Part shown: piece after piece, positions 7,444-57,515 of the stretch
Numbering within the stretch: the stretch's first letter is position 1
How the letters are laid out: each line of letters starts with the position of its first letter
Assembly: GCA_964249675.1 (NCBI GenBank)
Contig: CAXUCZ010000001.1
Location: 1 to 59,358, forward strand
From: an uncultured Acetobacteraceae bacterium
GTDB lineage: Bacteria > Pseudomonadota > Alphaproteobacteria > Acetobacterales > Acetobacteraceae
DNA: 59,358 nucleotides
Reading direction: 5' to 3'
The notes under the pieces: model-generated
What the model was told of the DNA's origin: nothing
Database searches by the model: none
The model's input: the letters and a program-made list of their open reading frames with translations, nothing else
Position numbers and translations under genes: made by a program

Positions 7444-7459
7444 CCCTACCGTAGTGATT
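7444..7459 (-). promoter_or_regulatory. class I element AATCACTACGGTAGGG
   Basis: In the 25-nt gap between the capsid stop and ATG 7439, co-oriented with the genes. Confidence 0.8.
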
Positions 7460-7464
7460 ACGAC

Positions 7465-8412
7465 CTAGCCGCGAACGGCGTAGAGTTCCGTCAGCGCGAT
7501 GCCGTCGAGCACCTTGCTGCCGTAGACCTGCAGGCCGCGCAGCAGGGTGCCGAACGTCTGCTCGGAGCGGATCGTCTCGATCTTGCTGATCTGGCTCGCG
7601 AACGTCAGGCCGTGGCTGTGCCCGCCGAAGATGCGGAAGGCGTTCTGCGCACCCTCGACCGCAGTCGGCAAGAGGTTGCTGGAATACAGCGTGAAGCGGT
7701 CGATCATGCCCAGGCGCCCGTTGCGCAGCAGGCTCACGCCGTCGCCCGAGATGGAAGCGTTGGACAGATCGGACTTCTTGATCATGCCGGCCATCCACGG
7801 CGGCAGCACCAGCCAGCGCCCCGTCTCGGGGATGTTCTGCTCGTCGAGCGTGGTGCCCATGTCGACGATGCTGTCCAGCACGTTGGTCGGCGTCAGCGCG
7901 ACCGGTGCGCCGGTGGCGCCGAGGTTCATATCCTGGCTGATCCTGCCGGCGTTCAGGCCCTTGTTGGCCGCGACCACGCCCGCATCGAGCGTGCCGAGGA
8001 CCGCCGTGTCGATCACGATCTTCATCTGCTCGGACGCGTCGTCGGCCCACATGCTCAGCATGTTGATGTCCGACTGCACCTCGATCACGTCGTCCAGGAC
8101 TTCGTTGAAATACTGGGCCTGGTCGATCGTCAGGTCGATCATGTTGCTCGACGGGCGCTCGACGACGAGCGGCATGTCGATCTGATACTGGCGGATGGTG
8201 ATGGTCGGCTTGGTGCGGATGTGCACCGTGTCGCCCATGTTGCGGATCTCGCCGGCGTAATCGGTGTTCGCAATCGCGCCCAGGACGGTCGCGTTATAGA
8301 ACTTCTCGATCAGCTTGCCCGACCAGATCTCGGGGATGAAGATACCGGAGTAGGCGGGGTTGGCGGAAGTGCCAGCGCCACCATAGGGAGTCGTTGCGAC
8401 AGGAACGGGCAT
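7465..8412 (-). CDS. major capsid protein
   Basis: 315 aa directly after the scaffold-like gene. N-terminus (..SGIFIPEIWSGKLIEKFYNATVLG..) typical of podophage HK97-fold coats. Confidence 0.8.
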   Translation of the reverse strand: MPVPVATTPYGGAGTSANPAYSGIFIPEIWSGKLIEKFYNATVLGAIANTDYAGEIRNMGDTVHIRTKPTITIRQYQIDMPLVVERPSSNMIDLTIDQAQYFNEVLDDVIEVQSDINMLSMWADDASEQMKIVIDTAVLGTLDAGVVAANKGLNAGRISQDMNLGATGAPVALTPTNVLDSIVDMGTTLDEQNIPETGRWLVLPPWMAGMIKKSDLSNASISGDGVSLLRNGRLGMIDRFTLYSSNLLPTAVEGAQNAFRIFGGHSHGLTFASQISKIETIRSEQTFGTLLRGLQVYGSKVLDGIALTELYAVRG

Positions 8413-8436
8413 GTCCAGGGTTGTCCTTGAGAGCGT

Positions 8437-9504
8437 TTACCGAACGCGTCCCTCGGTTGTCGCCGCGATGATATCCCGCTCGAGGCGCAGCTTTTCAGCC
8501 TCGCGCCCGGCATAGGCACCACGGTTCACATCCCGATAGAACGCAGTGATCTCTGGTGGCGACCAGAGCCTCGCTTCTCTCGGAGCGCCGTTGCTGCCCT
8601 GGCCGGTGGCCCTGCCGGGAGCTGCCATGCTTTCCAGTGTGGGCCTGCCCGCCCCGGCATCCGGGGTATGAGCAGGCTGGCGCTGGGGCTGGCCGGTGAC
8701 GGTATGCTCGGCGATGAAGGCGTTGAAGAATGCAGCCGTCCGGGCTGCATCGCCATTCCTGTAGGCGACCCCGAGCATGTCGTGACGGACCTGCCCGGAG
8801 AAGGGATCGACCTGACGAAGCCAATCCAGGAACTCAGGCTCGTTATTGACAGTGCGCCAATTCGGAACCTGCTGATCCAATACTCGCTCAACGTTCTGTT
8901 GTGCAACAGAACTTTGTGCCCGCTGCGCATTTTGTTGCACACTGGCAACCTGCGTGCGCAGCTCCTCAAGCTCGCCGGATACCTCGGCGCGCGCCCAGCG
9001 TCGGGCCGCGTCGATCAGTTCGGAACCGAACGCCTCGGTATCCTCTTTCGGAACCTCGACCTGCTTGCGCGCGGCGGGTGCCGGCGTCGGCTCGGGCTTC
9101 GGCTGCGACTGAAGGTTTGCCAAGATGGTGTTGAGCGACTGCACCTGCGACGACAGCTCGCGAACCTGCCGGTTCAGCGCCGGCACCTCGGCGTTGTATT
9201 TGCCCTGCAGCGTGTCGTGACGCTGCTTCCAGATCGCGTCGTCCACCACCGGCTCGGACTTCGGCTCGACCACCTGGGTCGGCTGGCCGGGCTCGAGCTG
9301 CACTTCGGTGCCACCCTCGGGCGGCTTCCCGACGGTAGTGGCATCGGCTTGTGCGCGCAGGTCGCGCTGGAGCTGTTCCGACCGCTCGGCCTGCCGGCGC
9401 ACGCTGTCCGGCACGAAGTTGTTGAAGTCGGCGACCGGCGCCTCGGGAGGTGCGGGCGCAGATGCGGGTGCAGGCGCCTCGGCGACGGGCGCTGTGCCGC
9501 TCAC
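8437..9504 (-). CDS. scaffolding protein
   Basis: 355 aa, A/E/Q/R-rich coiled-coil-like, between portal and capsid genes. GTGA coupling. Confidence 0.65.
   Translation of the reverse strand: MSGTAPVAEAPAPASAPAPPEAPVADFNNFVPDSVRRQAERSEQLQRDLRAQADATTVGKPPEGGTEVQLEPGQPTQVVEPKSEPVVDDAIWKQRHDTLQGKYNAEVPALNRQVRELSSQVQSLNTILANLQSQPKPEPTPAPAARKQVEVPKEDTEAFGSELIDAARRWARAEVSGELEELRTQVASVQQNAQRAQSSVAQQNVERVLDQQVPNWRTVNNEPEFLDWLRQVDPFSGQVRHDMLGVAYRNGDAARTAAFFNAFIAEHTVTGQPQRQPAHTPDAGAGRPTLESMAAPGRATGQGSNGAPREARLWSPPEITAFYRDVNRGAYAGREAEKLRLERDIIAATTEGRVR
9328..9340 (-). repeat. class II element CACTACCGTCGGG (exact)
   Basis: Sense to the scaffold gene, encodes T-T-V-G. Confidence 0.9.
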
Positions 9505-9764
9505 GCGTCAGCTCCCTTGAGGCCGGGCTTGACCACGGCACGGGCATGCACGCCCTTGGTCGCGGCTTCCAGCGCCACCACCAGGTCGCTCATGCAGCGT
9601 GCGTAGGCGGTCTGGTCGATGCGGTTTTCCGGCGCGCATTCAAGGGACGCGTGCAGCTTGGCCGAGGTCGTGTCGCGTAGGCCGTCAACAAAGATGCGCC
9701 ACTCCGGGGCAGCCCGGAGGGTTCGGATCGCGTCAGTGGCCGCTTGGCCGAGGTTCAGGGACAT
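9501..9764 (-). CDS. hypothetical protein
   Basis: ATG 9764 (MSLNLGQAATDAIRTL...). The listed start is a TTG one codon upstream. Confidence 0.6.
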   Translation of the reverse strand: MSLNLGQAATDAIRTLRAAPEWRIFVDGLRDTTSAKLHASLECAPENRIDQTAYARCMSDLVVALEAATKGVHARAVVKPGLKGADA

Positions 9765-10129
9765 CAATCATCCATTGGAGTTGAGGGCATGGTGGCAGGC
9801 CCATCCTGGAGCCCCCCCTGTCTCGGGCGAGACCGCATGCCACCCGAACCGCCGCGGATCATGTCATTGCTCGAGCCGGCGTGCGCCGTCGGATCGAGGT
9901 TGGTGTCAGGCGAGGACAATCCCGGTAGCGCCGTGGCGCCCTTGCCGTAGTTGCCCATCGACTGGGAGAGGGGATCGCCGCCGGTGATCGACGTCTTTCC
10001 AGCCGGCGGCGCAGCGCCCAGGCCCATCGGTCGCGGCGCGTGCAGGTTCACCGACTTCGCACCCTTGCCGTCGGCAGCACCGAACAGCTTCTCGGCGTGA
10101 CCCGGCTTGCCCACACTCGACTTGATCAT
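9764..10129 (-). CDS. Gly/Pro/Ser-rich small virion-module protein
   Basis: 121-aa ORF between portal and scaffold genes. Confidence 0.55.
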   Translation of the reverse strand: MIKSSVGKPGHAEKLFGAADGKGAKSVNLHAPRPMGLGAAPPAGKTSITGGDPLSQSMGNYGKGATALPGLSSPDTNLDPTAHAGSSNDMIRGGSGGMRSRPRQGGLQDGPATMPSTPMDD

Positions 10130-10142: not shown

Positions 10143-10397
10143 TCAGACGCCGTTGACGCCGTAGGTCGAGCCCTTGCCCTTGGGTACGAAGTCGGCGGTC
10201 ATGCCGACCTTGCCGCCCTTGGGGTAGCTCGAGGTGGACCCGGTCGGACCCGAGCCCGACTTGCCACCGGCCTTGATCATGTCGAGCGACTTGCTCGAGA
10301 TTTCCTTGCTGTCCTTGCCCATCATGGAGCCCTTCTTGCTGTAATCCTGGCGCTGCGTGCCACTCTCGCCGTCGCTGTCGGTCGCGGTCATCTTCAT
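10143..10397 (-). CDS. Lys/Gly/Ser-rich small basic protein
   Basis: 84 aa, ATGA-coupled to the portal stop. Confidence 0.6.
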   Translation of the reverse strand: MKMTATDSDGESGTQRQDYSKKGSMMGKDSKEISSKSLDMIKAGGKSGSGPTGSTSSYPKGGKVGMTADFVPKGKGSTYGVNGV

Positions 10398-12646
10398 GCC
10401 GGTATCCCCTGGTGCTGGAAGCTGTTCACGGGAGGCGCGTTGTCGCTGAGCTGCGCCGGGGCAGGCTGCGGGGCCTGTGCTCCCTGCGCCTGCGCCCCTG
10501 CCGAACCTGGATCCGGCGCTGGTGGCCCGCCCGGCTGGCCCGGCACCGGCGGCGCGCCTGCGCCCGGAGCGCCGCCCTGGTGGGCTGCGGCTGCCATCTG
10601 CATCTGCTGCATGGCCTTCTGCTGCGCCGCCTGCTGCTGGATCTCCATGTCGCCAGGCACGATGTCGTCGGGCAGGCCCAGGTCAGCAGCGATAGAGCGA
10701 AGAACACGGGCACGCCCCACGGTTCCGATGATCGGCGCGTCGATCGGGTTGGCGGTGATCTGCAGGAACTGGAGCTGCTTCTGGCGCTCGGTTTCCTTCT
10801 GCACCGCGACGTTGACGCCGCGCACCCTGATCTCCTCCTCGCCGGTGAGCAGGCCGGACCTGTCGGTCAGCATGATCATGTCGTAGAGGGCATCGAGCAG
10901 CGGACGCATGACGTCGTTGTCGATATTGGAGGCGACGGTTTGCAGCACCTTCTCGGCGTTGCCCATCAGCATCGACAAGCCCGACGCGGTGCGACCGGCG
11001 CCCCCGCTCATGCCGGCGCCCGTCAGGTAGCGTGGGATCGCGCTGACCTCGTCGGCCATGTTGGTGATCTGCGCGAAGATCGCCATCAGCTCCTGGGCGG
11101 TGGACTGCGGCTGGAAGAACGTGATTGGCGGGCCACCATTTGCCGACGGATCAGCGCTGACGTGCCAGCGCTTCCACGGATAAAGGTCATCGCCGTTCTC
11201 GGTGGGGGCAAGCTGGTCGTCGTTCACGACAACCTGTGGCCCGCTCGACATGGCGAGATTGTTCACCATCGAGCGCAGAGTCGCGTTCGCGATCTCCTGC
11301 AGGTCCTCCAGCAGGTCGGGCAGGGCATGGCCCGCGACGGTGCCTGGCACTTTCTCGAAGCTCGTGACGAAATACGGGTGCCGCTGACGCGGGCTCGGAT
11401 TGAGCTGGGTCTTGATAACGTGCTCGCCGATGATCCAGGTCTGAACCGCATAGTCGCGATCGGGATCTGGGATCAGCTTCTTGTCGATCCCCTGCTCGAG
11501 GAGCATGCGCCCCTGGATATTGCCGTGGTATTCGAGCGCGTCGATCATCCCCGTCTGGTTGAAAGTCGGGTTCTCACGGCCCTCGTAGATCGCGCGCTCG
11601 GTGTCGTTGCTGTCCAGCCAGTCACGGTAGCCCGCGCGATAATCCTCTAGCGCGCCGCGTATCGCGTCGTCGTCATACCCAGGCAGACCGAGCAGGTCGT
11701 TGAGGTCCGTCCGGGTCAGACGCTTGCGCTCGATGATCTCGGCGTCCTCGATCCGACTGACGCCGGGCGACCAGTAGATGTCGAACGGGCTCTTGCGCTC
11801 CCAGAACATCTGCGGCTTGGTCACGAAGCTCGGAGTGCCGTCGCTCGACCAGGTCAGCTTGGGCACCATGCGGACCACCGGCCCCTTGATGCAGGCGAAC
11901 GCGAACAGCGGCAGGTCGGTCAGGAAGTCGGTCAGCGCCTCGTAGAAGCCACCCGAGACCAGCAGATCCTCGATCTTGTCCGAGGTGGCCAGCGCCTGCA
12001 TCTGGGCGTTGCGCCGCGAGGCCGCGGTCGCCGCGTGCATCAGGTTCATGTAGCGCATGTGCGCCTGGTCCTCGAGCACCGGCTGGCCGGACTGCTTGAG
12101 GGTGTTCACCTCGGTCGAGACCAGGGTCGCAATGCCGGCCTGGATCTCGGCGGGCACCGGCGGATCCGGCTGCGGCTGGATGTCCCAGGGCCGGTCGGGT
12201 CCCAGGTAGACCTCGCGCAGCAGGCTGGCAGCACCGCGGCACTTCACGCCGACCAGGCGGGAGTAGACCCTGGAACCGCCGAACCGCTCGATCTCGGCCA
12301 GCTTGGACGGGTCGTAGACACCCTCGAACATGCGCTGCGACCGCGTAAGCCGGTCGTTGAGCGCGTCCAGTCCCTGATTGCGGTTGTTGCGGAACACTTC
12401 CCAGCGGTTGCGGACATAGGCAGCAAGCCCGCTGATCTCGATGGTTTTCTGGTTTGCCTCGGCGCGTGCCGATGCCGCGGCGGCATCCTGGCGATCGAGG
12501 TCGGCACCCGAGACCACGCGCAGCAGGCCACCCGCGCGCGAGGTGCCGGACCCGTTGCCGGGACCCCCGCCCATGGTGGGCGAACTCGACGACACACCTG
12601 GGATCGCCTGCGGCAAACCAACCCTCCGGTCAGGGACCGCCCACAA
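10394..12646 (-). CDS. portal protein
   Basis: About 750 aa, divergent from the terminase genes and upstream of scaffold and capsid. True start uncertain: listed TTG 12646, alternative TTG 12616 behind GGAGGG, or ATG 12574. Confidence 0.75.
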   Translation of the reverse strand: MWAVPDRRVGLPQAIPGVSSSSPTMGGGPGNGSGTSRAGGLLRVVSGADLDRQDAAAASARAEANQKTIEISGLAAYVRNRWEVFRNNRNQGLDALNDRLTRSQRMFEGVYDPSKLAEIERFGGSRVYSRLVGVKCRGAASLLREVYLGPDRPWDIQPQPDPPVPAEIQAGIATLVSTEVNTLKQSGQPVLEDQAHMRYMNLMHAATAASRRNAQMQALATSDKIEDLLVSGGFYEALTDFLTDLPLFAFACIKGPVVRMVPKLTWSSDGTPSFVTKPQMFWERKSPFDIYWSPGVSRIEDAEIIERKRLTRTDLNDLLGLPGYDDDAIRGALEDYRAGYRDWLDSNDTERAIYEGRENPTFNQTGMIDALEYHGNIQGRMLLEQGIDKKLIPDPDRDYAVQTWIIGEHVIKTQLNPSPRQRHPYFVTSFEKVPGTVAGHALPDLLEDLQEIANATLRSMVNNLAMSSGPQVVVNDDQLAPTENGDDLYPWKRWHVSADPSANGGPPITFFQPQSTAQELMAIFAQITNMADEVSAIPRYLTGAGMSGGAGRTASGLSMLMGNAEKVLQTVASNIDNDVMRPLLDALYDMIMLTDRSGLLTGEEEIRVRGVNVAVQKETERQKQLQFLQITANPIDAPIIGTVGRARVLRSIAADLGLPDDIVPGDMEIQQQAAQQKAMQQMQMAAAAHQGGAPGAGAPPVPGQPGGPPAPDPGSAGAQAQGAQAPQPAPAQLSDNAPPVNSFQHQGIPA

Positions 12647-12647: not shown

Positions 12648-12663
12648 CCCTAATGTAGTGGTT
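12648..12663 (-). promoter_or_regulatory. degenerate class I element AACCACTACATTAGGG
   Basis: In the 47-bp divergent gap between portal and terS. One core mismatch. Confidence 0.5.
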
Positions 12664-12693: not shown

Positions 12694-13218
12694 ATGATGA
12701 GTGCTGCAGTCAGCCAGGACGTCTCCGACACGGCGATCGACGCTCTGGTCGACCAGACCCCGACGGTAGTGAAGTTCGACCCCGACGACGAGGTCGCCCT
12801 GCAGCTCATCAACGACGTCGCCGTGCAGATCCAGAGCTACGACACGATCGCCGCGCGGTTCGGGCTGAGCAAGCCGCAGCTCTATGCGTGGATCAAGCAG
12901 CCCGAGGTGCTGCGCCGGATCAAGGCGCGCCGTGCGCAGTGGCAGGCGGACGGCAATGTCGCCGAGCGCAACCGCACGCTGTATGGCCACATCACCATGG
13001 ATGCGGCGCCGGTGCTCGACCGCATCCTGCACGACCCGCAATCGACGGCCAGCGCCAAGCTCGAGGCGTTCAAGATCGCCGGTCGGTTTGCCGGCCTCGA
13101 GGCGCAGCCCAAGGGCCAGGCCGAGAGCGGCCCCGGCAACAGCTTCGCGGTGAACATCATGTTCAGCGGCGGGCGCGTCGAGCGCATCACCCCGATCCTG
13201 GAAGGCACGCCGGAATGA
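12694..13218 (+). CDS. terminase small subunit (candidate)
   Basis: ATG 12694 (MMSAAVSQ...), 174 aa. HTH-like segment (TIAARFGLSKPQLYAWI). Upstream of TerL. Confidence 0.5.
   Translation: MMSAAVSQDVSDTAIDALVDQTPTVVKFDPDDEVALQLINDVAVQIQSYDTIAARFGLSKPQLYAWIKQPEVLRRIKARRAQWQADGNVAERNRTLYGHITMDAAPVLDRILHDPQSTASAKLEAFKIAGRFAGLEAQPKGQAESGPGNSFAVNIMFSGGRVERITPILEGTPE
12759..12771 (-). repeat. class II element CACTACCGTCGGG (exact)
   Basis: Antisense inside terS, which reads P-T-V-V there. Confidence 0.9.
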
Positions 13219-13898: not shown

Positions 13899-15305
13899 GT
13901 GAGCCTGGATTATTCGCCTCCGGCGACGATCGAAAAGTTTATGATGGACGACAGCCTGGTGCGGGTCATCGTCGGCCCGGTCGGCTCGGGCAAGTCGATG
14001 GGCTGCATCATGGAGATGGTGCGCCGCGCGACGCTGCAGGAACCCGCGACCGGCACCAAGGTGCGCTACTCGCGCTGGGCCGTGGTGCGCAACACGCTGC
14101 AGCAACTACGCACCACGGTGTTGTCCGACATCCAGCAATATATCGGCCCGATGATGCGCTACTTCGTCACCGACAGCACGGTGCAGATCCGCTGCCCGCT
14201 GCCGGACGGCACCACGATCCATTGCGACATCCTGCTGATCCCGCTCGACAGCGCTGACGACCAGAAGCGCCTGCTGTCGATGCAGCTCACCGGCGCGTGG
14301 ATCAACGAGTGCCGCGAGGTGCCGATCGACGTGACCTCGGCGCTGATCGGACGCCTGGGCCGCTATCCGTCCAAGCTGCAGGGCGGGCCGTCCTGGTTCG
14401 GCCTGATCATGGACAGCAACCCGTGGGACACCGACAGCCCCTACCACGACCAGCTCGTGCTCAAGCCGGCGCCGAACTGGAAGCTGTTCCACCAGCCTTC
14501 GGGCGTGGGTGCCGCCGCCGAGAACACCGACAACCTGCCGCCCGGCTACTACGACAACCTCATGCAGGGCCGCGACGGTGAGTGGGCTGCCGTGCATGTC
14601 GAGAGTCAGTGGGGCACCAGCAACGCCGGCCAGGCGGTGTTCCGCCGCAGCTTCCACGCCCCCACCCACGCGCGTGACGTCGCCGCCGTGGTCAACCCGC
14701 ACCGCCCGCTGATCATCGGCATGGACTTCGGGCGCACCCCCGTCGCCCTGATCGGACAGACCGACGTGATGGGACGGCTGGTGGTGTTCGAGGAGCTGAC
14801 CACCGAGGATATGGGCCTGGTGCAGTTCCTGGAGGAACGCGTCAAGCCGCGGCTGTTCGCCGAGCCGTTCACCGGCAAGCGGCACTTCATCGTGGCCGAT
14901 CCCGCCGGCGCGCAGCGCTCGCAGCTCACCGAGCAGACCGCCTTCGACGTGCTCAAGGAACAGGGGCTGCTGGCCTACCCGGCGCCGTCCAACGCGCTAG
15001 GCCCACGGCTCACCTCGGTAGAGCGCATGCTGCGCGGCTCCATCATGGGGCAGCCCAGCCTGCAGATAAGCCGCGCGGGCTGCCCGACGCTGATCAATGC
15101 GCTGGGTAACAAGTATCGCTACCGCAAGCGCCGCGACGGCCAGATGGAGGAGACCCCGGAAAAGCTGCATCCATGGTCCGATGTGGCCGACGCGCTGCAA
15201 TACATGTGCATGGGCGTCGCCGCTGACATAACCGGTCGAGTGATCCGCCGTGACGTGCCTCGGGTTGTCAACCGGCAGCCGGTATCAGCCAAAGGATGGA
15301 CCTGA
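13899..15305 (+). CDS. terL: terminase large subunit
   Basis: Walker A GPVGSGKS, Walker B-like AWINE, nuclease-type FIVADPAG. 468 aa. Confidence 0.85.
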   Translation: MSLDYSPPATIEKFMMDDSLVRVIVGPVGSGKSMGCIMEMVRRATLQEPATGTKVRYSRWAVVRNTLQQLRTTVLSDIQQYIGPMMRYFVTDSTVQIRCPLPDGTTIHCDILLIPLDSADDQKRLLSMQLTGAWINECREVPIDVTSALIGRLGRYPSKLQGGPSWFGLIMDSNPWDTDSPYHDQLVLKPAPNWKLFHQPSGVGAAAENTDNLPPGYYDNLMQGRDGEWAAVHVESQWGTSNAGQAVFRRSFHAPTHARDVAAVVNPHRPLIIGMDFGRTPVALIGQTDVMGRLVVFEELTTEDMGLVQFLEERVKPRLFAEPFTGKRHFIVADPAGAQRSQLTEQTAFDVLKEQGLLAYPAPSNALGPRLTSVERMLRGSIMGQPSLQISRAGCPTLINALGNKYRYRKRRDGQMEETPEKLHPWSDVADALQYMCMGVAADITGRVIRRDVPRVVNRQPVSAKGWT

Positions 15306-15322: not shown

Positions 15323-15338
15323 AATCACTACGGTAGGG
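15323..15338 (+). promoter_or_regulatory. class I element AATCACTACGGTAGGG
   Basis: Intergenic after TerL, 50 nt upstream of ATG 15389. Confidence 0.75.
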
Positions 15339-16461: not shown

Positions 16462-16661
16462 AGTTCGCGCCGCGGAGCCAGCCAGTCCCGGCCATAGCGC
16501 TTCCTCACCAGCCGCTCGCGGCGTGCCTGGGTGTTCTTGAACCACCGCGCCAGCAGCGCCCAGATCACGCACACCACCAGGGCTGCCAGCACCCAGCATC
16601 CCGCAAGCGTCAGTCCCGCCAGCTCGAGCCAGTCCACGTTCGCCCCCTCGTCCCAGTTCAT
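16458..16661 (-). CDS. small membrane protein
   Basis: 67 aa. TM segment LTLAGCWVLAALVVCVIWALLA. Confidence 0.55.
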   Translation of the reverse strand: MNWDEGANVDWLELAGLTLAGCWVLAALVVCVIWALLARWFKNTQARRERLVRKRYGRDWLAPRREL

Positions 16662-17323
16662 GTCCGCCTCATCTTCGTGCCGGTAATCAGGTAGTAGCGA
16701 CGACGCACGCTCTCGGCCTCGTCGGTTACGGTCTCCTCGAAGCCATCCACCCCGCAGCCGCGAAACCCGGCATGGTTCATGGCGGCGAGGATGGCGTCGG
16801 GGTGATGGTGGTGGGCGTAGGCGAACGACTGGCCGCTGGTGTTGGACGCGATCCCCAGCACCAGCTCGCCGCCAATCTGCAGAACCCGGTGCAGCTCGAA
16901 CATCGCCGATCCCAGCTCATCCCAGTAGTAGGCGACATTCAGCGCGACTGCGATGTCATAGCTGCAGTCAGGCACGCAGAGCTTGCGCGCGTCGCCGCTG
17001 CGCACGCGGAAGCGCCCTGCCAGATCCAGGCCGGCAACACCCCACCGATGCACCTTCTCGGCAGCCTGGCTCACCATCGTCGTGCTCAGATCGAACCCGG
17101 TGTAGCTGTTGATAAGCGCGACGCGCATCTGCTGCATGAAGCCGCCGCCGCCGAACCCGACCTCGAGCACGTCGGCGCCGGGCGGGATCATCGCGGCTAC
17201 CTCGCGCTGCACGCGGTCGTTCAGCCGGTCCATCAGCCTGGCCACCGTGATGCCGAGCGCACCCGACGGGCAGGCCCCGTGCGCCTGGAAGTCCGCCCGG
17301 TCGATGTGAGTGTGGCGTGGCAT
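16658..17323 (-). CDS. class I SAM-dependent methyltransferase
   Basis: Motif I VLEVGFGGGGF. ATG 17323 behind GAAGG (the listed start is CTG). No DPPY/NPPY or PCQ DNA-MTase motif seen. Confidence 0.7.
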   Translation of the reverse strand: MPRHTHIDRADFQAHGACPSGALGITVARLMDRLNDRVQREVAAMIPPGADVLEVGFGGGGFMQQMRVALINSYTGFDLSTTMVSQAAEKVHRWGVAGLDLAGRFRVRSGDARKLCVPDCSYDIAVALNVAYYWDELGSAMFELHRVLQIGGELVLGIASNTSGQSFAYAHHHHPDAILAAMNHAGFRGCGVDGFEETVTDEAESVRRRYYLITGTKMRRT

Positions 17324-50500: not shown

Positions 50501-51821
50501 TGACCGGGTCCGACGCGCCTACGGGAGCCTTGGTCGGATCGAGCGTCTGACCGGTCGGACTGGCCGTGTCGATCGGCTTGTCCTCGCCGGCCTCGGTCTG
50601 GATGTCGCCGTGCGCGCCGCCATGCAGCACGCCGCCCGCACCACCCAGCACCGCGCCACCGATCGCGCCGCCCGCGACCGCCCTGGCCAGTGCCTCGGGA
50701 TCGAACTTCGACTGCGTGCCCAGCGTCTCGTTCTGCGACTGCTGGATGGCGTCGTCGGCGCCCGACTGGGCACCCATGGTGGCAGCGCCCTCGCCGCCGC
50801 CGATCAGCGCACGGATCGCGGTGCCGGCGCCGTCAGCGACACCCGCCGCACCCTTGCCGAGCAGGCCACCGACACCGACCGCACCCGCCGCACCGGCGAT
50901 GTAGTGTCCGAGCATCGGCATCGCGAGCGAGCCCACGATCGACCTCTTGGCGTCGTCCACCGACATGCCGGTCTCGCGCAGATGCGCGTAGGCCGGGCTC
51001 TGCATCATCGTCTTGTCGGAGGCGTTGTCGACCTGGTTGACGGTCTCGTTGTAGGCGGCACCCGCGTCCTGCATGCCGCCGACCTGCGCGGTCGTGACGA
51101 GCCCGGCCACCTTGGCGACGGTCGCGGCGGTGTCGGCTGCCAGCCCGACCTTGCTCGCGATACCGAGCGCCACCTTGCCAGCAAGGCCACCCGGCAGCAC
51201 CATCGTCGCTGCGGTCGGCAGCAGGTTGACAAGCGCCGTCGCCGCGTAGCGGGCGTAGCCGGCCTGGGCGACCGACGGCGCGTTCGGGTCCGAGCCGTCG
51301 CTGAACAGCGAGGCGTGGAACGCCTTCTGCTGCGCGGCGCTCATGTCGCCGATCTGGTTCTCGATGTGGCCCTGCAGGTTCGCCTTGGCCTGCTCGAGGA
51401 AGCGCACCGAGATCGGGTCCGCAGTCAGCTTGCGATCGACCAGCGACGCGGCGCCGACGATGTCCTGAACGCTGCCGAGGGCTGCCGCATTGAAGGTATG
51501 CAGCGCATCCGACGCCCAGCTCGACTTGGGGGTCGGTGCCGGCGGGGCTGGTGGCGGCGTGAAGCCGAAGCTCTGCCCGGCCTGCGGGTCCTCGAACTGG
51601 TTCTGGTCGATCGTCCCGCCGGTCGGGATCGCCTGCTGCGGCTGCTGGTAGGGGTCGGGCGTATTGGCGTAGGGGCTCGGCTGCTGCGAAAGCTGCTGCG
51701 GCGTCGGCGTGTCAGCCTGCGCCATCGGCAGGCCCTGCTGGGGCTGGCTCGGGCCAGCACCCATCATCCGGTCCTCGTATTCCTCCTGGTCTGCCTGGTC
51801 GGACGCAGCGCTTCCCGACAT
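44583..51821 (-). CDS. giant internal virion / DNA-ejection protein with zincin HExxH motif
   Basis: 2412-aa uninterrupted ORF after the SLT protein. HEGLH at 48037..48051. Q/P/A-rich low-complexity N-terminal third. Confidence 0.75.
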   Translation of the reverse strand: MSGSAASDQADQEEYEDRMMGAGPSQPQQGLPMAQADTPTPQQLSQQPSPYANTPDPYQQPQQAIPTGGTIDQNQFEDPQAGQSFGFTPPPAPPAPTPKSSWASDALHTFNAAALGSVQDIVGAASLVDRKLTADPISVRFLEQAKANLQGHIENQIGDMSAAQQKAFHASLFSDGSDPNAPSVAQAGYARYAATALVNLLPTAATMVLPGGLAGKVALGIASKVGLAADTAATVAKVAGLVTTAQVGGMQDAGAAYNETVNQVDNASDKTMMQSPAYAHLRETGMSVDDAKRSIVGSLAMPMLGHYIAGAAGAVGVGGLLGKGAAGVADGAGTAIRALIGGGEGAATMGAQSGADDAIQQSQNETLGTQSKFDPEALARAVAGGAIGGAVLGGAGGVLHGGAHGDIQTEAGEDKPIDTASPTGQTLDPTKAPVGASDPVTSKPVDPQAAAAMKAPTDAATAPAATPAVPTAENGPNSTAPVAPDLHAALAEGLGTTPPEPTPPAPKPAPVTRKDFINALVDGGAARKDVAGLKLVDLKAQHDALLAKQNPAATPQTPESTPAPAPAPAPAVPEGMPTPQAPSAPAGEGAPSPLSPLHPDNAPPPPPAPVAPSEPAGVDRPPGELSPMAPQEPTAVTMPQPEAVQDATAPNTSVVETPGSPRELDAPVAGGSLGGTSSPDAGSLPAQERAAPSPVLPDRSEPGAPAASAPAAKPLTVADTLRAQAAAKRAAGKAKWAPPGARMKGTVVTVGDEGKGLEAGTEGRNPQEVRQDIIDASSRAARVAGLPPALHDSLKQAALGAVRDSPSESEAHDALAEFFKSNAGKNIPGSRVKFGDAGQTVMQLLRGKGLDEPAMSPREAELHADTQDTRVVDAAEEARANASDKLAEGGSRYDADEARGQAHREQTEDERAGELGEEAGGEDGPSTQVTQDYGTAPREESSVAASVTNTAKIGANLMRRLLSDHADLDLAEAHDEFGDASEDGRPRAYKNLSDYIQKQIDTAPAREREVLSEQADRLADMQAAREQSRRALKPGEKPLKPPTTQAMSALTRRVDRVMAEVDPEHLDRLRDLKDRLDQAVEDRTSDPVGYEARRELERQGRGETSADSSGSERISRPLYRRDVEPGGAGGQSEYVRALADPRINSVVSSRLADNELNRNRPSSAHELYRLIANNARIKSSMRPMAALADHLLKVAPDIEVHSQDSALDHGLLSQKEYDEDYASGDTYGSYNPTSGGGAHIILHNNPSRPASMVETLLHEGLHSVTADHITMLEKLDRSNPQAQALQAIMEELSRHYNTAGREFQASQTGRDLGYALSDIHELHTGLMSGARLQELAASLPASDQLRARLAELGFGQRPAGTSVWRHFTDWVRRAVGLGPSGSASETSLLDHILHPLQDVTDSAVRLNRSMDALAPSDPVLRQHAEPLFRAATTVGKPLLGRALDLVDRPGIGDRVREAALASQDLDNMVDRNRELMGRHVTTDAGSTDPDKGLVLKVANPLEYFRQTTEAIQNSSNAYDRQFRDRVGTLGQRLAGRDDLGQLMVDATIGKTNLGEANPHLTDPDAIKASEALQARFAGLSKADRDTVKGAQALYTESYRAQRDAYLKGMIGNFLPDATPEQVKALSQVTRSKTTLDEFIRTGDDATLARAFSQGWEDSRSIAQGIAKVQRMGFVEGGYFPLRRFGDYTIRYGDPDNLETYGMERFEKRGDADARYAELKAQGVEGLSTVQLRNEGKLGDLTGKSDLVNRTVMAIAKKHGDEQAEQAREMMQKVMLEYATKSEAAVAKRRGVKGASIDQSRVMAQEHLSASSRVGYAEHSAARQSALSMMRLVAEDLGRRGSSDDTVRAQQVYRELVKRSAANEDLGGAMAALARRATSFSFTQSLMSPSHMVTSSIESHTNASALLGARHGYTRATLALSKAMADVTPRLAGKGLTHSLAGLGGRLKQADWDLSKHAQQQFVRAGAKADHMKTLFDQLDRANLIDHTMVRETQRLANPSGAIRSTLGKSWQRFSDFNAAGAHAVDVANKSAIAKATFDLELRRNGGDVDRAATVATDTLRRATPNYNFSNKARIATSAGPLKQFAGPLMQFKNYGIHQYGMMANLVRASMQGATKAERWEARKAFAGVLATHAAMAGTLTLLADPLRLIGGAYDWATSAKSPHDYENSVRGWMSDTFGPELGQVIARGLPEAAGIDIHRRVGLSNMLELPDINTFDAKGYTTALMQIMSGATAENFGNEAAGVSKLLQGDPSGFQLVVPRPIRDMMKAANLATTGVTNSKTGQVELPASQISTGSVIAQGLGFQPSRVSEFREGHYAVQEAMQEAQQARSGLTQKFLQADPADRTDVWAEIQQYNAQNPTAPIQYQSLLRALNQRMVVARQAAANPGSFGVRLPRGDTSALTSAGRFANVGG
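47517..47529 (-). repeat. class II element CACTACCGTCGGG (exact)
   Basis: Sense in the giant gene, encodes T-T-V-G. Confidence 0.9.
49722..49734 (+). repeat. class II variant CACTACGGTCGGG
   Basis: Antisense in the giant gene (P-D-R-S). Confidence 0.85.
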
Positions 51822-54800
51822 CAGTTCATCGCCATCGTGGTGGGCGCGTTCTGCTGCGGGATCGCCGAACTCTGCGGCGTGCCCATCAGCGGGTTCGGGT
51901 TGCCCGCGGTTGCCTGCCCTGCCCCGATGCCCTGGGTCGGACGCGCGGTCTGACCGGCCTGGTTACGGGACTGACCATACAGGCTCTCACCCAGCGACGA
52001 CGGGATGTAGGCATGCACGAAACCTGTCTTGGGATCGGCGATGCCGTAGCGTCCCTGGCTGTCGCGCGTCACCTGGAGCTGACCCTTGGCGACGCCCATC
52101 GCCAGGAAGTTGGCGTGCGGCGGCGACATCGCGCCCGCCTGGGCATTGACGCGCAGGCCGGTGAATACCTGGGCGGCGATCGAGCGCGCCTGGTCGACGT
52201 TGGCCGGCGCCTGCCCGGTGACCGGGTCGCGGAACTGGTCGGTCTTGGAGCCCGCGGTATAGTAGTTGGTGGCGTCGCTCTCGGTCTGCCGGGCGAAGCC
52301 GTCGCTCTCCTTCCTGCCCTGCTCGGCCCTGAGCTGCGCTGCTTCCCGGCGCTGCTCGGTAGCGGCAGCGGCCTGCTGGCCGCGCTCGGCGACTGCCTCG
52401 TGTGCCGCCGTTGCGCGCTCGGCGATGTTGTCCTCGACGCCTTGCTGGCGGATGCCGGCAGCCTGGATGCGCTCCTGGTCCAGCCCGCCATAGTATTTCG
52501 CGCGCGCCGCGTTCAGCGCCATGCTCGAGACGTGCTGCTGCTGGGCGTTGACCATCTCGAGGTATTTGTTCGGGTCCGAGGTGGTGATCATCATTTGCTG
52601 GATGCCCTGCTGGGTCACCTGGAACGGTGGCGCCAGCGCCCGGCTCGGGTCGTTCTCGTCGAGCTGCTGCGCCCACAGGTTGCCCGAGGCGTCGGTGCCG
52701 AACCGGCCCACACTACCGTCGGGGAAGAACGCGTGCGCCTTCGCCAGCATCTGGGCGGCACCCGCCATGTTGCCGGCTCCGAACGCCTGGCTCGCCGCCT
52801 GCAGGCTCTGCGTCGCACCCTGCTGGGACATCTGCGTCACCAGGTCGCGCGCCTGACCGACGCCTGCATAGTCGTGGCGCGCGATGGCGGCGACGATCAT
52901 CGAGGTCTCGGCCCGACGCCAGCTATCGGTCATGTTCATGCCCTGCGGGCTGGTGCTGACCATGTATTTCACGAACTGGTCAGGACCCTGCTGGGCTGCC
53001 TGCATCAAGCCTGGGCCGTTGTTGCCGCCACCCGGCGTGAACTTGCCCTGCAGCGGGTCGGACTTGTCATCGACGCTGTCCGAGAGACCCGGCACACGCG
53101 GGTTCACGTCGAGCTTCGAGCGCGTCGGATCGCCCGGCGAGAACTGGTTGCCGTCCGGGTCGTCGGTGATGTTCAGCGCCTTGCGCACGTAGGCCATCGT
53201 CTTGGGGAACTTGCCCTCGGCGTTGCCATAGTCGGTCGCGATGGCATGGACGTTGGCCGGTCCCGCCGTGTAGGCGGCGATCGACGAGACGCTGTTGCGC
53301 CCGAACTCGCGGTCGTTGAGGTTGATGTAGCGCGCACCCAGGCGCAGCGAGCCCTCCATCGTAGAGCCGTCGATCTGGCCACGCGGATCCAGATACTTCT
53401 GGGTGGCCGGCTCGACCTGCATGATGCCCTTGGCACCGGTCTGGCTGTCGGGTGCGCTGTCGTGCAACCCGCTTTCCAGATACCAGTGCAGGGCGAGGCG
53501 GGTCGGGTCGACATCCTCCTCGCCGGCGACCTTCATCACCAGGTTGTAGGCGCCCGGTGCCTGCTGCTTCAGCGCCTCGAGTGGACGTGGGTCGATGGTC
53601 GGCTTGACCACTGCGGGGGTCGGCTCGGACTGCACGGTCGGACTGGTCTGTCCTGGTGCGACCGGTGCGGCGGACGCGGGGATCACGACGGCAGCCGAGC
53701 CCGCCTGCGGGTCCGGCGTCTGGGTCTGCGCCGCCTTCAGCGCGCCGGGGTTGGCGGCACCGGCGTTGACCGCCTTCGCGACCGGGCTGGCCGGGTTGAC
53801 GGCGGGTGCCGCCGCCGGGATCGCCTGCGCAGCCGGGCTGACGGCGGGCGACGTGCCCGTGTTCGGCCCGCCCTTGGGCTCGGCAGCGGCAGCGGACGGG
53901 TTCAACGCCGACATGATCGACGCACCGATGCCGCCACCCTGCGCCGGGGCCGCGGTGGTGCCGGTTGCCATCGGGCCGAGCGGCGCCGCGTTGGGCTGAG
54001 CCGACGCGGTCTGCCCGACAGAGACGGCAGGACCGGTGCTCTGCTGCGCCGTGCGGCCTTGCTGCGAAGCCATCTGCGGCTGCGGCTGGCCGGGCTGGTT
54101 GGGCGACATCGGCGGGATCGCTGGCTGCGCGGACTGTCCCGACGGTAGGGCACCGGGCGGCGGGGTCTGTCCCTGCGGGTCAGGCGCATAGCCGCCGTCG
54201 CTCGAGACCATGCCCTGCGGCGTGCTGGTGTTGGCCTGGTTGACCGCTGCCTGCTGCTGGCTCTGCTGCATGCCAGCCCCGTAGCCGTTGCCGCCGACCG
54301 CGCTGGCAGGCGGGGGTGCGGTCGGCGCTGGCTGGGCGTTGCTGGCCGGGATCGGCGAGCCCTGCATGCCGGGGGTCTGTGTCCCAAAGCCAGGGCGGGC
54401 GCCGCCGGTATAGGCACCGGGAATGCTGGTGCTGGCCTGCATCGCCGGGCTGTTCGGCACCAGCGCCGGGTTGGCAGTGCCCGACGGGGCGACCGGACGC
54501 ACGGGCGGCGGGGCCGAGGTGGGCGCAGGCGCGGACGGCGAGACCGAGGAGACCGGCGTGATGCCGAGCCCGCCGGTGGACGGTGCCGACGGGGCGGCAG
54601 GCGGGGTCGCGCCGAAGCCCGCGGTGTCGCTGGGCACGCTGATCTTGGACGGGTCGGCGAGGCGGGTCGGCGCCTTGCTCGAGCTGGACGCCTGGCTGGT
54701 GGTGTTGTTGGACGGATACTGCACCGTGGTGTCAGTAGAGTCCGTGCCGGCGTAGCCGCCGCCACCTTCCGCCGAGGAGCCGTAGGCGTCGTTGATGTCG

Positions 54801-55030
54801 CCCGAGGTCTTGATGTTGCTCGCGGTCTGCGCAGCCGTGGATCCGCTCGCGCTTTGCGCCGCACCCGCTGCCGCTGCCTTGTTGTCGTTCAGCGCCTTCT
54901 TGGCATCCGACGCGGCGTCGAGATCGTCCTGCGTCTGCTGGATGCCCTGGTAGGCGCCATAGATCGACATGACGGCCTGCGCGCCGCCGAACAAGCCCTG
55001 GGTGAAACTGCCGAGACCGCCTACCGACAT
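51821..55030 (-). CDS. internal virion protein with soluble lytic transglycosylase (SLT) domain
   Basis: LESGLH...GAKGIMQVEP...AAYTAGP motifs (about 53230-53520). Long A/P/Q/G/S-rich N-terminal half. Confidence 0.75.
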   Translation of the reverse strand: MSVGGLGSFTQGLFGGAQAVMSIYGAYQGIQQTQDDLDAASDAKKALNDNKAAAAGAAQSASGSTAAQTASNIKTSGDINDAYGSSAEGGGGYAGTDSTDTTVQYPSNNTTSQASSSSKAPTRLADPSKISVPSDTAGFGATPPAAPSAPSTGGLGITPVSSVSPSAPAPTSAPPPVRPVAPSGTANPALVPNSPAMQASTSIPGAYTGGARPGFGTQTPGMQGSPIPASNAQPAPTAPPPASAVGGNGYGAGMQQSQQQAAVNQANTSTPQGMVSSDGGYAPDPQGQTPPPGALPSGQSAQPAIPPMSPNQPGQPQPQMASQQGRTAQQSTGPAVSVGQTASAQPNAAPLGPMATGTTAAPAQGGGIGASIMSALNPSAAAAEPKGGPNTGTSPAVSPAAQAIPAAAPAVNPASPVAKAVNAGAANPGALKAAQTQTPDPQAGSAAVVIPASAAPVAPGQTSPTVQSEPTPAVVKPTIDPRPLEALKQQAPGAYNLVMKVAGEEDVDPTRLALHWYLESGLHDSAPDSQTGAKGIMQVEPATQKYLDPRGQIDGSTMEGSLRLGARYINLNDREFGRNSVSSIAAYTAGPANVHAIATDYGNAEGKFPKTMAYVRKALNITDDPDGNQFSPGDPTRSKLDVNPRVPGLSDSVDDKSDPLQGKFTPGGGNNGPGLMQAAQQGPDQFVKYMVSTSPQGMNMTDSWRRAETSMIVAAIARHDYAGVGQARDLVTQMSQQGATQSLQAASQAFGAGNMAGAAQMLAKAHAFFPDGSVGRFGTDASGNLWAQQLDENDPSRALAPPFQVTQQGIQQMMITTSDPNKYLEMVNAQQQHVSSMALNAARAKYYGGLDQERIQAAGIRQQGVEDNIAERATAAHEAVAERGQQAAAATEQRREAAQLRAEQGRKESDGFARQTESDATNYYTAGSKTDQFRDPVTGQAPANVDQARSIAAQVFTGLRVNAQAGAMSPPHANFLAMGVAKGQLQVTRDSQGRYGIADPKTGFVHAYIPSSLGESLYGQSRNQAGQTARPTQGIGAGQATAGNPNPLMGTPQSSAIPQQNAPTTMAMN
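52711..52723 (+). repeat. class II element CACTACCGTCGGG (exact)
   Basis: Antisense in the SLT protein gene (P-D-G-S-V). Confidence 0.9.
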
Positions 55031-56695: not shown

Positions 56696-56734
56696 TCTTG
56701 TGTGTCCTATCGGGTTTCGGGGGAGAGCCCGGCG

Positions 56735-56911
56735 CTACTTCTTCTTCAGCGCCTTCTTCATGGAGACCGGCCCGCCGGTGGACTTCGGTCCCTGGATCGG
56801 CTTGGCCGGCATGACCTTGCCGGGACCGCCCGGCACGTCGCCCGACGGGCTCGAGCCGCGAACGGGGGACACGGTGGCCTTCTTGCCGCCGGTAAACTTG
56901 GTTCCAGCCAT
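56735..56911 (-). CDS. small Lys/Gly/Pro-rich basic protein (not in ORF track)
   Basis: Hand translation: ATG 56911 MAGTKFTGGKKATVSPVRGSSPSGDVPGGPGKVMPAKPIQGPKSTGGPVSMKKALKKK*, 58 aa. Class I element with GGGAG lies 12 nt upstream. Confidence 0.55.
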   Translation of the reverse strand: MAGTKFTGGKKATVSPVRGSSPSGDVPGGPGKVMPAKPIQGPKSTGGPVSMKKALKKK

Positions 56912-56923
56912 GGTCGGATTACT

Positions 56924-56939
56924 CCCTACGGTAGTGGTT
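56924..56939 (-). promoter_or_regulatory. class I element AACCACTACCGTAGGG
   Basis: 12 nt upstream of ATG 56911. Confidence 0.8.
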
Positions 56940-56987
56940 ATTATGCACAGGATGACGCGTAAGCACCACGAGGTTCTTTCGATATAG

Positions 56988-57515
56988 TCACAGAATTACG
57001 CACAGGATGGGTAAGGTAGAGGGTGCTACCGTAGCGATTGAAAGGGTGCCGGATGCCGCAAACCCGAAGGCGCCATCGCCGCTCGTATCGTTGGCGGCGC
57101 TGGCGCTGCCCTCGCTACTGGTCTCCAGCTCGCCTGCACCAGTGGCTGGGTCCGCTTGAGACAGAACCCCCTCAGATCTGAACGCCGGCAGCGTGACGGT
57201 CGCGGCCACGTCGTTGGTCTGACCGATCTGGCCCGTGGTGGAGAAGGGCAGGGCGGCAGCGCCCGAAACGGGGTCGGACTGGTCGGTCTCGCCGGTCGCA
57301 CCGAACGCACCGAAGCTGCCAGCGCCCGCGGTGGGCTGCGCCTGGCTGACCTGCCCTACCGTCGTGAACCCGAGCGAGCCCGCGCCCGAGGCGGGGTCGG
57401 ACTGGGTGACCTGTCCAGCCGCCTTGAATGCACCCAGGGTTCCGACACCCTGGGTGGTGATCACCTGGGACTCAAGGCTGATCGGCGCGGTGGAGAGGGC
57501 GAAGCCGCCGAGCAC
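56988..57515 (-). CDS. repeat-containing fibre/appendage protein
   Basis: About six imperfect 20-aa repeats (G.GS.GF...GQV.Q.DP..). GTG start abuts the upstream TAG. Confidence 0.6.
   Translation of the reverse strand: MLGGFALSTAPISLESQVITTQGVGTLGAFKAAGQVTQSDPASGAGSLGFTTVGQVSQAQPTAGAGSFGAFGATGETDQSDPVSGAAALPFSTTGQIGQTNDVAATVTLPAFRSEGVLSQADPATGAGELETSSEGSASAANDTSGDGAFGFAASGTLSIATVAPSTLPILCVIL
57024..57039 (-). promoter_or_regulatory. element variant AATCGCTACGGTAGCA
   Basis: Inside the last 17 codons of 56988..57515, 85 bp upstream of copy 56924. Confidence 0.5.

Follow-up and report, generated by a model that had tools for sequence, protein, structure and literature searches.

A near-palindromic element repeated at the gene boundaries of an uncultured podovirus-like phage genome

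Two described systems of short sites repeated over phage genomes come closest to the element reported here. The stoperators of cluster A mycobacteriophages, bound by repressors of the L5 gp71 type, are asymmetric 13-bp sites; a genome has more than 20 of them, spread over promoters and short gaps between genes, where they overlap start or stop codons; their orientation correlates with the direction of transcription and their specificity varies among related phages (PMC9283540). The start-associated sequences (SAS) of cluster K mycobacteriophages are oriented, repeated, non-palindromic 13-bp sequences situated 3-7 bp from start codons of the non-structural arm only, at or overlapping the Shine-Dalgarno (SD) sequence and sometimes containing the upstream stop codon, and the extended SAS (ESAS) of the same phages are associated inverted repeats with a consensus that differs by subcluster; the function of SAS and ESAS has not been established (PMC3203893). 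We describe a near-palindrome of 13-16 bases that occurs in about 35 copies, mostly just 5' of genes and in some cases inside coding sequence, in a contig of 59,358 nt deposited as an uncultured Acetobacteraceae bacterium (assembly GCA_964249675.1, contig CAXUCZ010000001.1), the whole of which is referred to as the window. The window is a complete, circularly permuted phage genome of ~59.3 kb with 66% G+C: positions 1-55 are identical to 59304-59358, and such an exact 55-bp terminal overlap is what assembly leaves behind when a genome is complete and either circular or circularly permuted.

The element is most like the stoperators and the cluster K sequences, yet fails membership of both. As with stoperators, there are many copies of a short asymmetric site (34 core copies, with the asymmetric CAC...GGG combination in excess, p=0.003), located in intergenic spaces and at the heads of transcription blocks and overlapping stop codons. 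In orientation the copies are divided: of the non-coding ones 21 of 25 point the same way as their nearest gene (p=0.0009), of the coding ones 9 of 18. Unlike stoperators, the site is pseudo-palindromic, half of its copies lie in coding DNA with sense and antisense about equal, the phage is a podovirus of probable alphaproteobacterial hosts and thus of unrelated host and type, and no helix-turn-helix (HTH) protein, repressor or integrase was detected in Pfam, PHROGs and NCBIfam searches of nearly all open reading frames (ORFs). A bound protein and a polar roadblock in the window are predicted by analogy. The comparison with SAS turns on distance to the start codon: 11 of about 20 non-coding copies sit 4-17 nt 5' of a start codon with the AGGG or GGGAG of the motif as the sole SD-like sequence, others 23-261 nt away, and 18 copies are coding. 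In contrast to SAS, the element is a pseudo-palindrome; its copies extend to the packaging, head, tail and lysis regions and, in either orientation, to the interior of genes.

Other families of repeated sites are more distant. Global operators, such as the OB sites of RK2 KorB and the operators of phage P1 C1, are sites of 13-17 bp that occur 12-20 times in a replicon of 60-90 kb, in part at promoters and in part remote from them or within genes. The element shares with them a short site dispersed over a replicon, but its copies are more numerous and tightly linked to cistron boundaries, and no ParB/KorB or C1 homologue was found in the window. T7-type and N4 promoters offer a precedent for lineage-specific conserved sequences of 16-23 bp before several gene classes; those of N4 form hairpins in which a stem of 5-7 bp carries a 3-nt loop. 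Here, unlike in the T7 type, no phage RNA polymerase was detected, antisense copies lie within genes and the SD overlaps the motif in relatives; unlike in N4, the arms show no covariation, combinations that cannot pair are over-represented and no giant virion RNA polymerase was recognised. REP/BIME elements and T4 PeSL cassettes are likewise short palindromes repeated outside genes, at the boundaries between them and often next to terminators, and REP elements carry a GTAG head. REP elements measure 20-40 nt, however, whereas the element has 13-19 bp, is half coding and lineage-specific, and no RAYT, Y1 or HUH transposase was detected in the window. The element fails the tests for T7/N4 promoters, REP elements and intrinsic terminators. 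Its kind, a genome-wide repeated phage regulatory site, is already known, and the phenomenon in this clade of phages appears undescribed; a literature search by motif sequence returned unrelated primers only, and nothing published was found on the Rhizobium phages that are its cultured relatives.

The consensus of the copies is an intrinsically asymmetric pseudo-palindrome, CAC[T/G]AC-N-GT[A/C]GGG, with a free central base. The 16-mer AATCACTACNGTAGGG with at most three mismatches is present in 27 copies (0.16 expected) and the degenerate 13-mer core CMCKACNGTMGKG in 34 (0.14 expected); the core CACTACSGTAG with at most one mismatch gives 52 matches (0.71 expected), most near-palindromic sites being scored on both strands in this count. 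Conservation is limited to ~19 contiguous bp and the flanks are unrelated beyond ~3 nt on each side, which excludes local duplication as the origin of the copies; differing flanks were already noted in the preliminary description of this DNA. Re-checking of the sequence confirmed all coordinates, distances and stop-codon overlaps given there, with 12648, 41498 and 57024 recognised as weak copies; the pseudo-palindromic nature of the site, the coding copies in either orientation and the start-codon corrections reported below go beyond it. The non-coding copies follow (c)AATCACTAC-N-GTAG(G/T)G, that is, with a 5' AAT extension, and those farther from a start (20946, 24881 and 36666, the last with its own SD) tend to end in GTAGTG or GTAGTA. 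The coding copies, for the most part the exact 13-mer, do not have the AAT and are spread over several reading frames; seven of the nine genome-wide occurrences of the exact 13-mer CACTACCGTCGGG are in coding DNA.

The two arms of the window copies show no covariation. Positions 4 (T/G) and 10 (A/C) combine as if independent (14/16/4 observed versus 14.2/15.5/4.2 expected), and at positions 2/12 the non-complementary CAC...GGG is found 25 times against 16.6 expected (p=0.003). Minimum-free-energy RNA folds of the sites rarely form the palindrome, and the stems are weak. Taken together, these results argue against selection for a hairpin in this genome, be it of RNA or of single-stranded DNA, and imply that the site is read as a sequence, one that is inherently asymmetric. 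None of the intrinsic terminators located by scanning coincides with a copy, the motif stems containing AT and no T run, and no -35 element is conserved 5' of the TACNGT part of the motif. Mimicry of the 16S rRNA 3' end was considered and rejected, as matches of 7-8 nt are no more than chance would give with a 1.5-kb target and an 11-nt match occurs in one variant only.

Non-coding DNA makes up 9% of the genome and holds 16 of the 34 core copies, a more than 10-fold enrichment; the other 18 are in coding DNA, in long genes or in gene blocks without intergenic DNA. Some copies overlap stop codons or abut starts (41498 overlaps a stop, and 43903 lies directly against one). All four transcription blocks are headed by a copy (12648, 20946, 21106), and any promoters within the short divergent gap between the portal and TerS genes must overlap the copy there. 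Throughout the early region copies are found at most cistron boundaries, about one per gene. Co-oriented copies precede early genes (function unassigned) as well as replication, packaging and holin-like, head, lysis and tail genes, so that the earlier proposal that the element is not stage-specific stands with regard to position, though not to expression. The copies are spaced more regularly than random (coefficient of variation 0.67, P=0.006) at ~1.6 kb, and the largest copy-free gap is 3.9 kb (P=0.008). The plus-strand copy at 15323 inside the small rightward block indicates that orientation follows genes and not a single replication direction. GC skew was also tried as an indicator of fork direction and discarded, the signal being too weak.

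Relatives of the phage were sought in several databases. A megablast search of INPHARED gave no DNA-level relative, the exact window motif is multi-copy in no IMG/VR contig and the capsid protein has no record in the assembly index. The cultured relatives are only four Rhizobium phages (RHph_TM3_14A and kin), which share the genome layout, with 59% identity in the capsid protein and 35% in the DNA polymerase. A capsid-protein scan of IMG/VR identified 578 related stretches, and the best 80 were examined, giving 66 distinct junctions 3' of the capsid gene. At 23 of these 66 a perfect AT-containing palindrome lies no more than 32 nt from the capsid stop, compared to 3.5% of control windows, and many further junctions carry imperfect palindromes. 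Two of the IMG/VR contigs, A and B (identity 74% for the capsid protein, 48% for the DNA polymerase), have TTCCCTAC-NN-GTAGGGAA in front of early genes and right behind the capsid gene. The Rhizobium phage contains GTTACCT-N4-AGGTAAC ~40 times versus ~2 expected, and its right arm AGGTAAC constitutes the SD, 4-8 nt before the ATG, and is better conserved than the left arm. The arm types differ by lineage and comprise CACTAC/GTAGTG, TTACGAC/GTCGTAA, TTACTAC, TTACTCC/GGAGTAA, CCCTAC, CCCGAC, CTATAG, CCACTAG, TTGTTTCC, TTACAC and TTACCT, and closer relatives have the window's own type at the same early junctions (before the ATPase gene, the DUF3150-like gene and a 247-aa gene). The comparison of syntenic junctions called for in the preliminary description brings out, in many relatives, lineage-specific palindromes at the same places, especially just after the capsid gene. 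Judged by this conservation of place with change of sequence, the element is a real regulatory signal, and the specificity of the factor that reads it most probably co-evolves with the site. In two relatives (L185 and L187) the conserved unit exceeds the palindrome and takes the form CACTAC(N1-2)GTAGTGGAG-nn-CTGAC(A)-ATG, a repeated translation-initiation cassette of ~35 nt.

The copies embedded in codons behave in the same lineage-specific manner. The copy at 9328-9340 lies in the linker of the scaffold-like gene (codons 55-58, TTVG), and many lineages have a counterpart at -1850 to -1880 nt from the capsid stop. Its Thr and Val codons change in step with the intergenic motif of each lineage: they are ACG ACN GTC GTA in L070, L076 and L079, in which the motif is TTACGAC-N-GTCGTAA, and ACT ACS GTA GTR in L069, L104 and L108, in which it is CACTAC or TTACTAC. 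Even the central base equals that of the intergenic copy in two of the three TTACGAC lineages (L076 and L079), and L125 retains ACACTACGGTAGTGG in another reading frame, encoding HYGS. This synonymous tracking and the change of frame bear out the earlier suggestion that copies are not lost but taken up into coding sequence, and by this comparison of codons the embedded copies are under nucleotide-level selection. In the scaffold-like gene of the CTATAG lineages (L097, L099, L101, L117), ~-1854 nt from the capsid stop, there is instead, where other lineages have their embedded palindrome, a perfect GC-rich hairpin with 12-bp arms (GGTGGGGACGGG-ACGCC-CCCGTCCCCACC).

We tentatively favour, at rather less than even confidence, the reading that the element is, in the manner of stoperators or global operators, a duplex-DNA site for a phage-encoded factor that marks cistron boundaries. 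We infer a protein reader, DNA rather than RNA as its target and a transcriptional output. The bound protein would control the host RNA polymerase at the copies; those at block heads would serve as operators at promoters, and the others as punctuation or polar roadblocks of the sort that the L5-type repressor sets up at stoperators, with genome-wide, switchable control of read-through as the outcome. The exact 13-mers in coding DNA, in several frames and about equally sense and antisense, argue for a DNA site and not an mRNA element. With no phage RNA polymerase or sigma factor detected and canonical sigma-70 promoters at chance, the host polymerase must be steered in another way. A duplex-DNA site would account for these antisense copies, the lack of covariation, the even spacing and the block-head positions, and is strained by the flexibility of the spacer. 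Relatives are present as separate ~60-kb contigs in two Bradyrhizobium isolate assemblies (L157 and L162) and also within larger bacterial contigs (L158/L159, two occurrences 62 kb apart in a 465-kb contig of a Pseudolabrys metagenome-assembled genome), which suggests that these phages may live as carried, plasmid-like or temperate elements, with hosts in Hyphomicrobiales, and makes a persistent or temperate state in need of genome-wide silencing plausible.

Several observations weigh against the duplex-DNA reading. Identical arms occur with 1-nt and 2-nt spacers inside single relatives (L185, L187) and the spacer ranges from 0 to 5 nt across lineages, a variability that a hairpin loop would accommodate better than a rigid dimer bound to duplex DNA. 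In the Rhizobium phage, L202, L203 and L185/L187 the SD is formed by the gene-proximal arm or by the loop, and asymmetries specific to the sense strand track this SD overlap, which points to mRNA. In some lineages an ordinary GC-rich hairpin replaces the palindrome at the same syntenic positions, and in L145/L154 the palindrome is the top of a terminator stem. At the end of the capsid gene the stop codon is usually followed by the palindrome, then by a GC hairpin (some with a T run, some not), the SD and the ATG (L083, L111, L125, L139), and in the early regions of A, B and a third contig, C, a terminator lies 5' of the palindrome. These features are more in keeping with an RNA or structural role than with a rigid duplex-DNA dimer. 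Finally, the domain searches revealed no HTH, ribbon-helix-helix, repressor, integrase or partition gene among nearly all ORFs, though a divergent DNA-binding protein may be encoded.

Much of this evidence favours an element that acts in the mRNA, bordering the ribosome-binding site on its 5' side, either as a small hairpin or as a start-associated sequence, an explanation that we consider rather unlikely. A phage factor would bind or cleave the mRNA (compare T4 RegA and RegB, or coat-protein operators), or SD access, translational coupling or 5'-end stability would be modulated. Besides the flexible loop within one genome, the GC hairpins at the same places in other lineages and the palindrome within the L145 terminator stem, it is favoured by the co-orientation of non-coding copies with genes, by the 11 copies that provide the only SD-like sequence close to a start, by the better conserved right arm of the Rhizobium phage, by a motif that runs straight into GGAG in L185/L187 and by a loop that holds AGGT or AGGA in L203. 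The CAC/GGG mismatch could keep the SD accessible, and lineages with a perfect CCCTAC..GTAGGG have a separate downstream SD. The cluster K SAS/ESAS provide a precedent (PMC3203893). An mRNA element is nevertheless difficult to reconcile with the absence of arm covariation and the excess of non-pairing combinations in the window, with stems too weak for minimum-free-energy folds, with exact 13-mers in coding copies of which about half are antisense, and with several good copies 35-260 nt from a start; upon inspection of the Rhizobium phage, its mismatched sites likewise show no preference for G-U wobble. In a further reading the oriented 16-mer, (c)AATCACTACNGTAGGG, would be a compact phage-specific promoter with transcripts starting at or near its GGG. 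The user would be an unrecognised phage RNA polymerase or sigma-like factor, or the host polymerase via TACNGT as a TANNNT-like element. About 18 co-oriented copies stand before genes of all classes and at each block head, the information is contiguous over ~19 bp with the 5' AAT conserved, the leaders after the motif are short, AU-rich and without SD, and the terminators of relatives A, B and C are immediately 5' of the motif. Canonical sigma-70 promoters are not above chance in the window (3 versus 4.3 expected). Copy number and spacing are T7-promoter-like, and CACTA...TAGGGAG is superficially like a T7 class III promoter. We regard a promoter as improbable, because no single-subunit RNA polymerase, virion RNA polymerase or sigma factor was detected in the window (no PF00940 or PHROG polymerase match), polymerase motif B, R..K..YG, is confined to the DNA polymerase and two ORFs of no relevance, and neither a polymerase signature nor a PDB match was obtained for the 2412-aa virion protein. 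Moreover, the perfectly symmetric palindromes of relatives would make a promoter fire both ways, an SD inside or abutting the motif (Rhizobium phage, L066/L067, L185/L187) leaves no space in which transcription could begin 3' of a -10 element, a genuine terminator follows the post-capsid palindrome within a few nt in L125, L139 and L088, and eight coding copies would drive antisense transcription.

A different DNA transaction, apart from gene expression, is very improbable in our estimation. The copies might serve lagging-strand priming by the AEP primase-helicase (compare RepB' and ssi hairpins), site-specific nicking (compare T5, phiKMV and LUZ24-type phages) or DNA modification or condensation. 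Their ~1.6-kb spacing, more even than random, on both strands and inside long genes would suit such a function, as would the conserved T immediately 5' of the palindrome, a putative origin with iterons at 22.6-22.95 kb and the phage-encoded 998-aa primase/DUF927 helicase, HNH nuclease and methyltransferase. However, the non-coding copies track local gene direction and not a plausible fork direction (15323 on the plus strand, 41498 and 43903 on the minus strand), one copy per gene in the early region is far above the need for priming, and copies systematically abut SD sequences and start codons across lineages. To our knowledge, known phage nick sites are on one strand only.

Three attempts to identify the reader or its output were given up. 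The 309-aa DUF3150-like early protein was proposed as the reader, being the sole protein shared with contig C, which has a similar motif, and was dropped because the Rhizobium phage apparently has no ORF of the same size at the corresponding position, yet has the palindromes; the AlphaFold model of the protein is confident (pLDDT 86), with a DUF3150-like fold and no PDB match. Covariation of early proteins with motif type over 36 early-region loci was abandoned, as there were too few independent lineages per type, and the ends of short metagenomic contigs were uninformative as a proxy for transcript ends.

The copies are listed in Table 1 together with the main genes and transcription blocks. 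The gene content is podovirus-like by Pfam, PHROGs and NCBIfam searches, and a minus-strand gene probably spans the circular junction. An HNH nuclease and a methyltransferase are also encoded. The methyltransferase-like protein (16658-17338, minus strand) has weak PHROG hits, and the Rhizobium relative encodes one too; the leftward block of small genes contains a Tad2-like (Thoeris anti-defence 2) protein (17357-17626, minus strand, Pfam E=1e-25) and a DUF6378 protein (18156-18515, minus strand). The long N-terminal half of the 2412-aa virion protein (44583-51821, minus strand) is rich in Pro, Ala and Gln, and a motif near residue 1258, HEGLH, resembles that of zinc metalloproteases; the protein matches nothing in Pfam or the PDB and no polymerase motif, and over 1421 aa it shares 35% identity with a protein of 2654 aa from contig B.

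Two non-coding stretches of the window have features of their own. Positions 22590-22950, right behind a strong intrinsic terminator (22551-22583), are AT-rich (G+C ~58% in a 2-kb window) and contain three repeats of (ACGC)GTTGCTAGAT and two of ATCTAGCAA in inverted orientation, and are a candidate replication origin with iterons or early control region, separate from the palindrome family. The ~260 nt at 21122-21382, between the 21106 copy (plus strand) and an SD-led 59-codon ORF (21383-21562), have no ORF and are rich in short hairpins, including the motif-like CCGACTACAGTCGG; they may be a structured leader or small RNA, with no Rfam match. No known RNA family or tRNA was found in the window.

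Copies of the element also bear on gene annotation. The previously unlisted 58-codon ORF at 56735-56911 (minus strand) has a third-position G+C of 0.90. The ORF at 26157 probably starts at ATG 26259, which has an SD (GGAG), as the first 34 residues are junk-like and the PHROG match starts at residue 40. The ORF after TerL probably starts at 15389 and the ORF at 36173 at the in-frame ATG 36206, 9 nt past a copy. With these corrections the distances from motif to start change, to ~103 nt for 26140 and 50 nt for 15323. Many starts (21658, 23513, 23791, 33241, 43864) have a second conserved context, (A)TCATC-ATG or CACC-ATG without SD, and relative A (L022) contains eight copies of a 10-mer, CATCCCCATG, tied to this context.

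Table 1. Copies of the element, principal genes and transcription blocks of the window.
Feature	Position	Strand	Remarks
Copy	93-105	-	Exact 13-mer; probably inside gene spanning circular junction
Copy	1148-1160	+	Exact 13-mer; antisense to gene 851-1498(-)
Copy	3347-3359	.	Coding, symmetric CACTACCGTAGTG
Copy	5055-5067	-	Exact 13-mer; sense strand of tail-fibre gene 4310-5437(-)
Copy	7444-7459	-	AATCACTACGGTAGGG, 0 mismatches; 25-nt gap after capsid gene, 5 nt past stop, 4 nt before ATG 7439; junction syntenic, palindrome in relatives
Copy	9328-9340	-	Coding CACTACCGTCGGG in scaffold-like gene; syntenic in relatives
Copy	12648-12663	-	AACCACTACATTAGGG, degenerate; 56-bp divergent gap between portal (-) and TerS-like (+) genes
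Copy	12759-12771	-	Exact 13-mer; antisense to TerS-like gene (+)
Copy	15323-15338	+	Perfect copy right behind TerL, before ATG 15389; orientation as local + block
Copy	20398-20410	.	CACTACAGTAGTA read on + strand; inverted partner of 20423 copy, 17 nt before ATG 20380
Copy	20423-20438	-	ATTCACTACGGTAGGC; between 20445-20903(-) and terminator-like hairpin 20339-20364; inverted pair with 20398-20410, potential 11-bp stem
Copy	20946-20961	-	AATCACTACGGTAGTG, perfect palindromic arms; 42 nt before ATG 20903, leftward block head; divergent from 21106(+)
Copy	21106-21121	+	Head of rightward early block; ~260-nt structured non-coding stretch, then ATG 21383
Copy	21630-21645	+	12 nt before ATG 21658; no separate SD
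Copy	23488-23503	+	9 nt before ATG 23513
Copy	23766-23781	+	9 nt before ATG 23791
Copy	24299-24314	+	10 nt before ATG 24325
Copy	24881-24896	+	GTAGTG type; 35 nt before ATG 24932 (MoxR-like ATPase); same junction occupied in L066
Copy	25512-25524	+	Coding CACTACCGTCGTG, ATPase gene
Copy	26140-26155	+	Directly 3' of 10-bp GC hairpin; before probable start ATG 26259
Copy	26592-26607	+	15 nt before ATG 26623 (DUF3150-like gene); same junction occupied in L066, L067, L150
Copy	29522-29537	+	11 nt before ATG 29549; same junction occupied in L066, L067
Copy	31191-31203	+	Coding CACTACGGTCGTG, DNA polymerase gene
Copy	32244-32256	-	Intergenic CACTACCGTCGGG, reverse orientation; 19 nt before ATG 32276 (+)
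Copy	36184-36196	+	Exact 13-mer CACTACCGTCGGG; before in-frame ATG 36206 (probable start)
Copy	36666-36681	+	AATCACTACCGTAGTA; 23 nt before ATG 36705, which has separate SD
Copy	39420-39432	.	Coding CACGACGGTAGTG, primase-helicase gene
Copy	41498-41513	-	GATCACGACGGTCGGG; overlaps HNH gene TGA, 7 nt before ATG 41490
Copy	43903-43918	-	AAACACTACGGTAGGG; last four endolysin codons ACT ACG GTA GGG, TAA next; 38 nt before ATG 43864 (own SD GGGGAG)
Copy	47517-47529	-	Exact 13-mer; sense strand of 2412-aa virion protein gene
Copy	49721-49733	+	Coding CACTACGGTCGGG, antisense to 2412-aa gene
Copy	52711-52723	+	Exact 13-mer; antisense to 1069-aa SLT-domain gene
Copy	56924-56939	-	AACCACTACCGTAGGG; 12 nt before ATG 56911 of 58-codon ORF 56735-56911
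Copy	57024-57039	-	AATCGCTACGGTAGCA, weak, 3 mismatches; within 3' end of gene 56988-57515(-)
Major head protein (capsid)	7465-8412	-	
Portal	10394-12646	-	
TerL	13899-15305	+	
MoxR-like ATPase	24932-26101	+	Paired with VWA/DUF2201 gene
VWA/DUF2201 gene	27721-29043	+	Paired with MoxR-like ATPase
Family A DNA polymerase	30296-32227	+	
SNF2 helicase	33536-35128	+	
Primase/DUF927 helicase	37839-40835	+	998 aa
Endolysin	43900-44781	-	
Internal virion proteins	44583-51821	-	Including 2412-aa protein
SLT-domain protein	51821-55030	-	1069 aa
Transcription block 1	~21.1-40.8 kb	rightward	Early and replication genes
Transcription block 2	20.9-16.5 kb	leftward	
Transcription block 3	12.7-16.5 kb	rightward	Small; packaging
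Transcription block 4	portal through circular junction to 41.2 kb	leftward	Long; structural and lysis genes

The element is a punctuation mark conserved across a widespread group of soil phages without known regulatory biology. In practical terms, it aids annotation of these genomes, as it supports the unlisted ORF 56735-56911, corrects the probable starts 36206, 26259 and 15389 and marks operon heads. The codon-embedded copies are a clean case of nucleotide-level selection overriding codon choice. With more than 10 arm and spacer types at syntenic positions, the family could reveal its reader protein by covariation and supply orthogonal pairs of regulator and site. It is conceivable, though we would hold it with somewhat more doubt than confidence, that a large clade of almost wholly uncultured ~60-kb podoviruses uses a fast-co-evolving, hitherto undescribed recognition pair, consisting of a factor without a detectable known DNA- or RNA-binding domain and a pseudo-palindrome of 13-19 bp, at every cistron boundary, the site being fixed even inside genes via synonymous codons; this would be a new genome-wide control, by transcriptional punctuation or mRNA processing, outside the stoperator, SAS and phage-promoter families.

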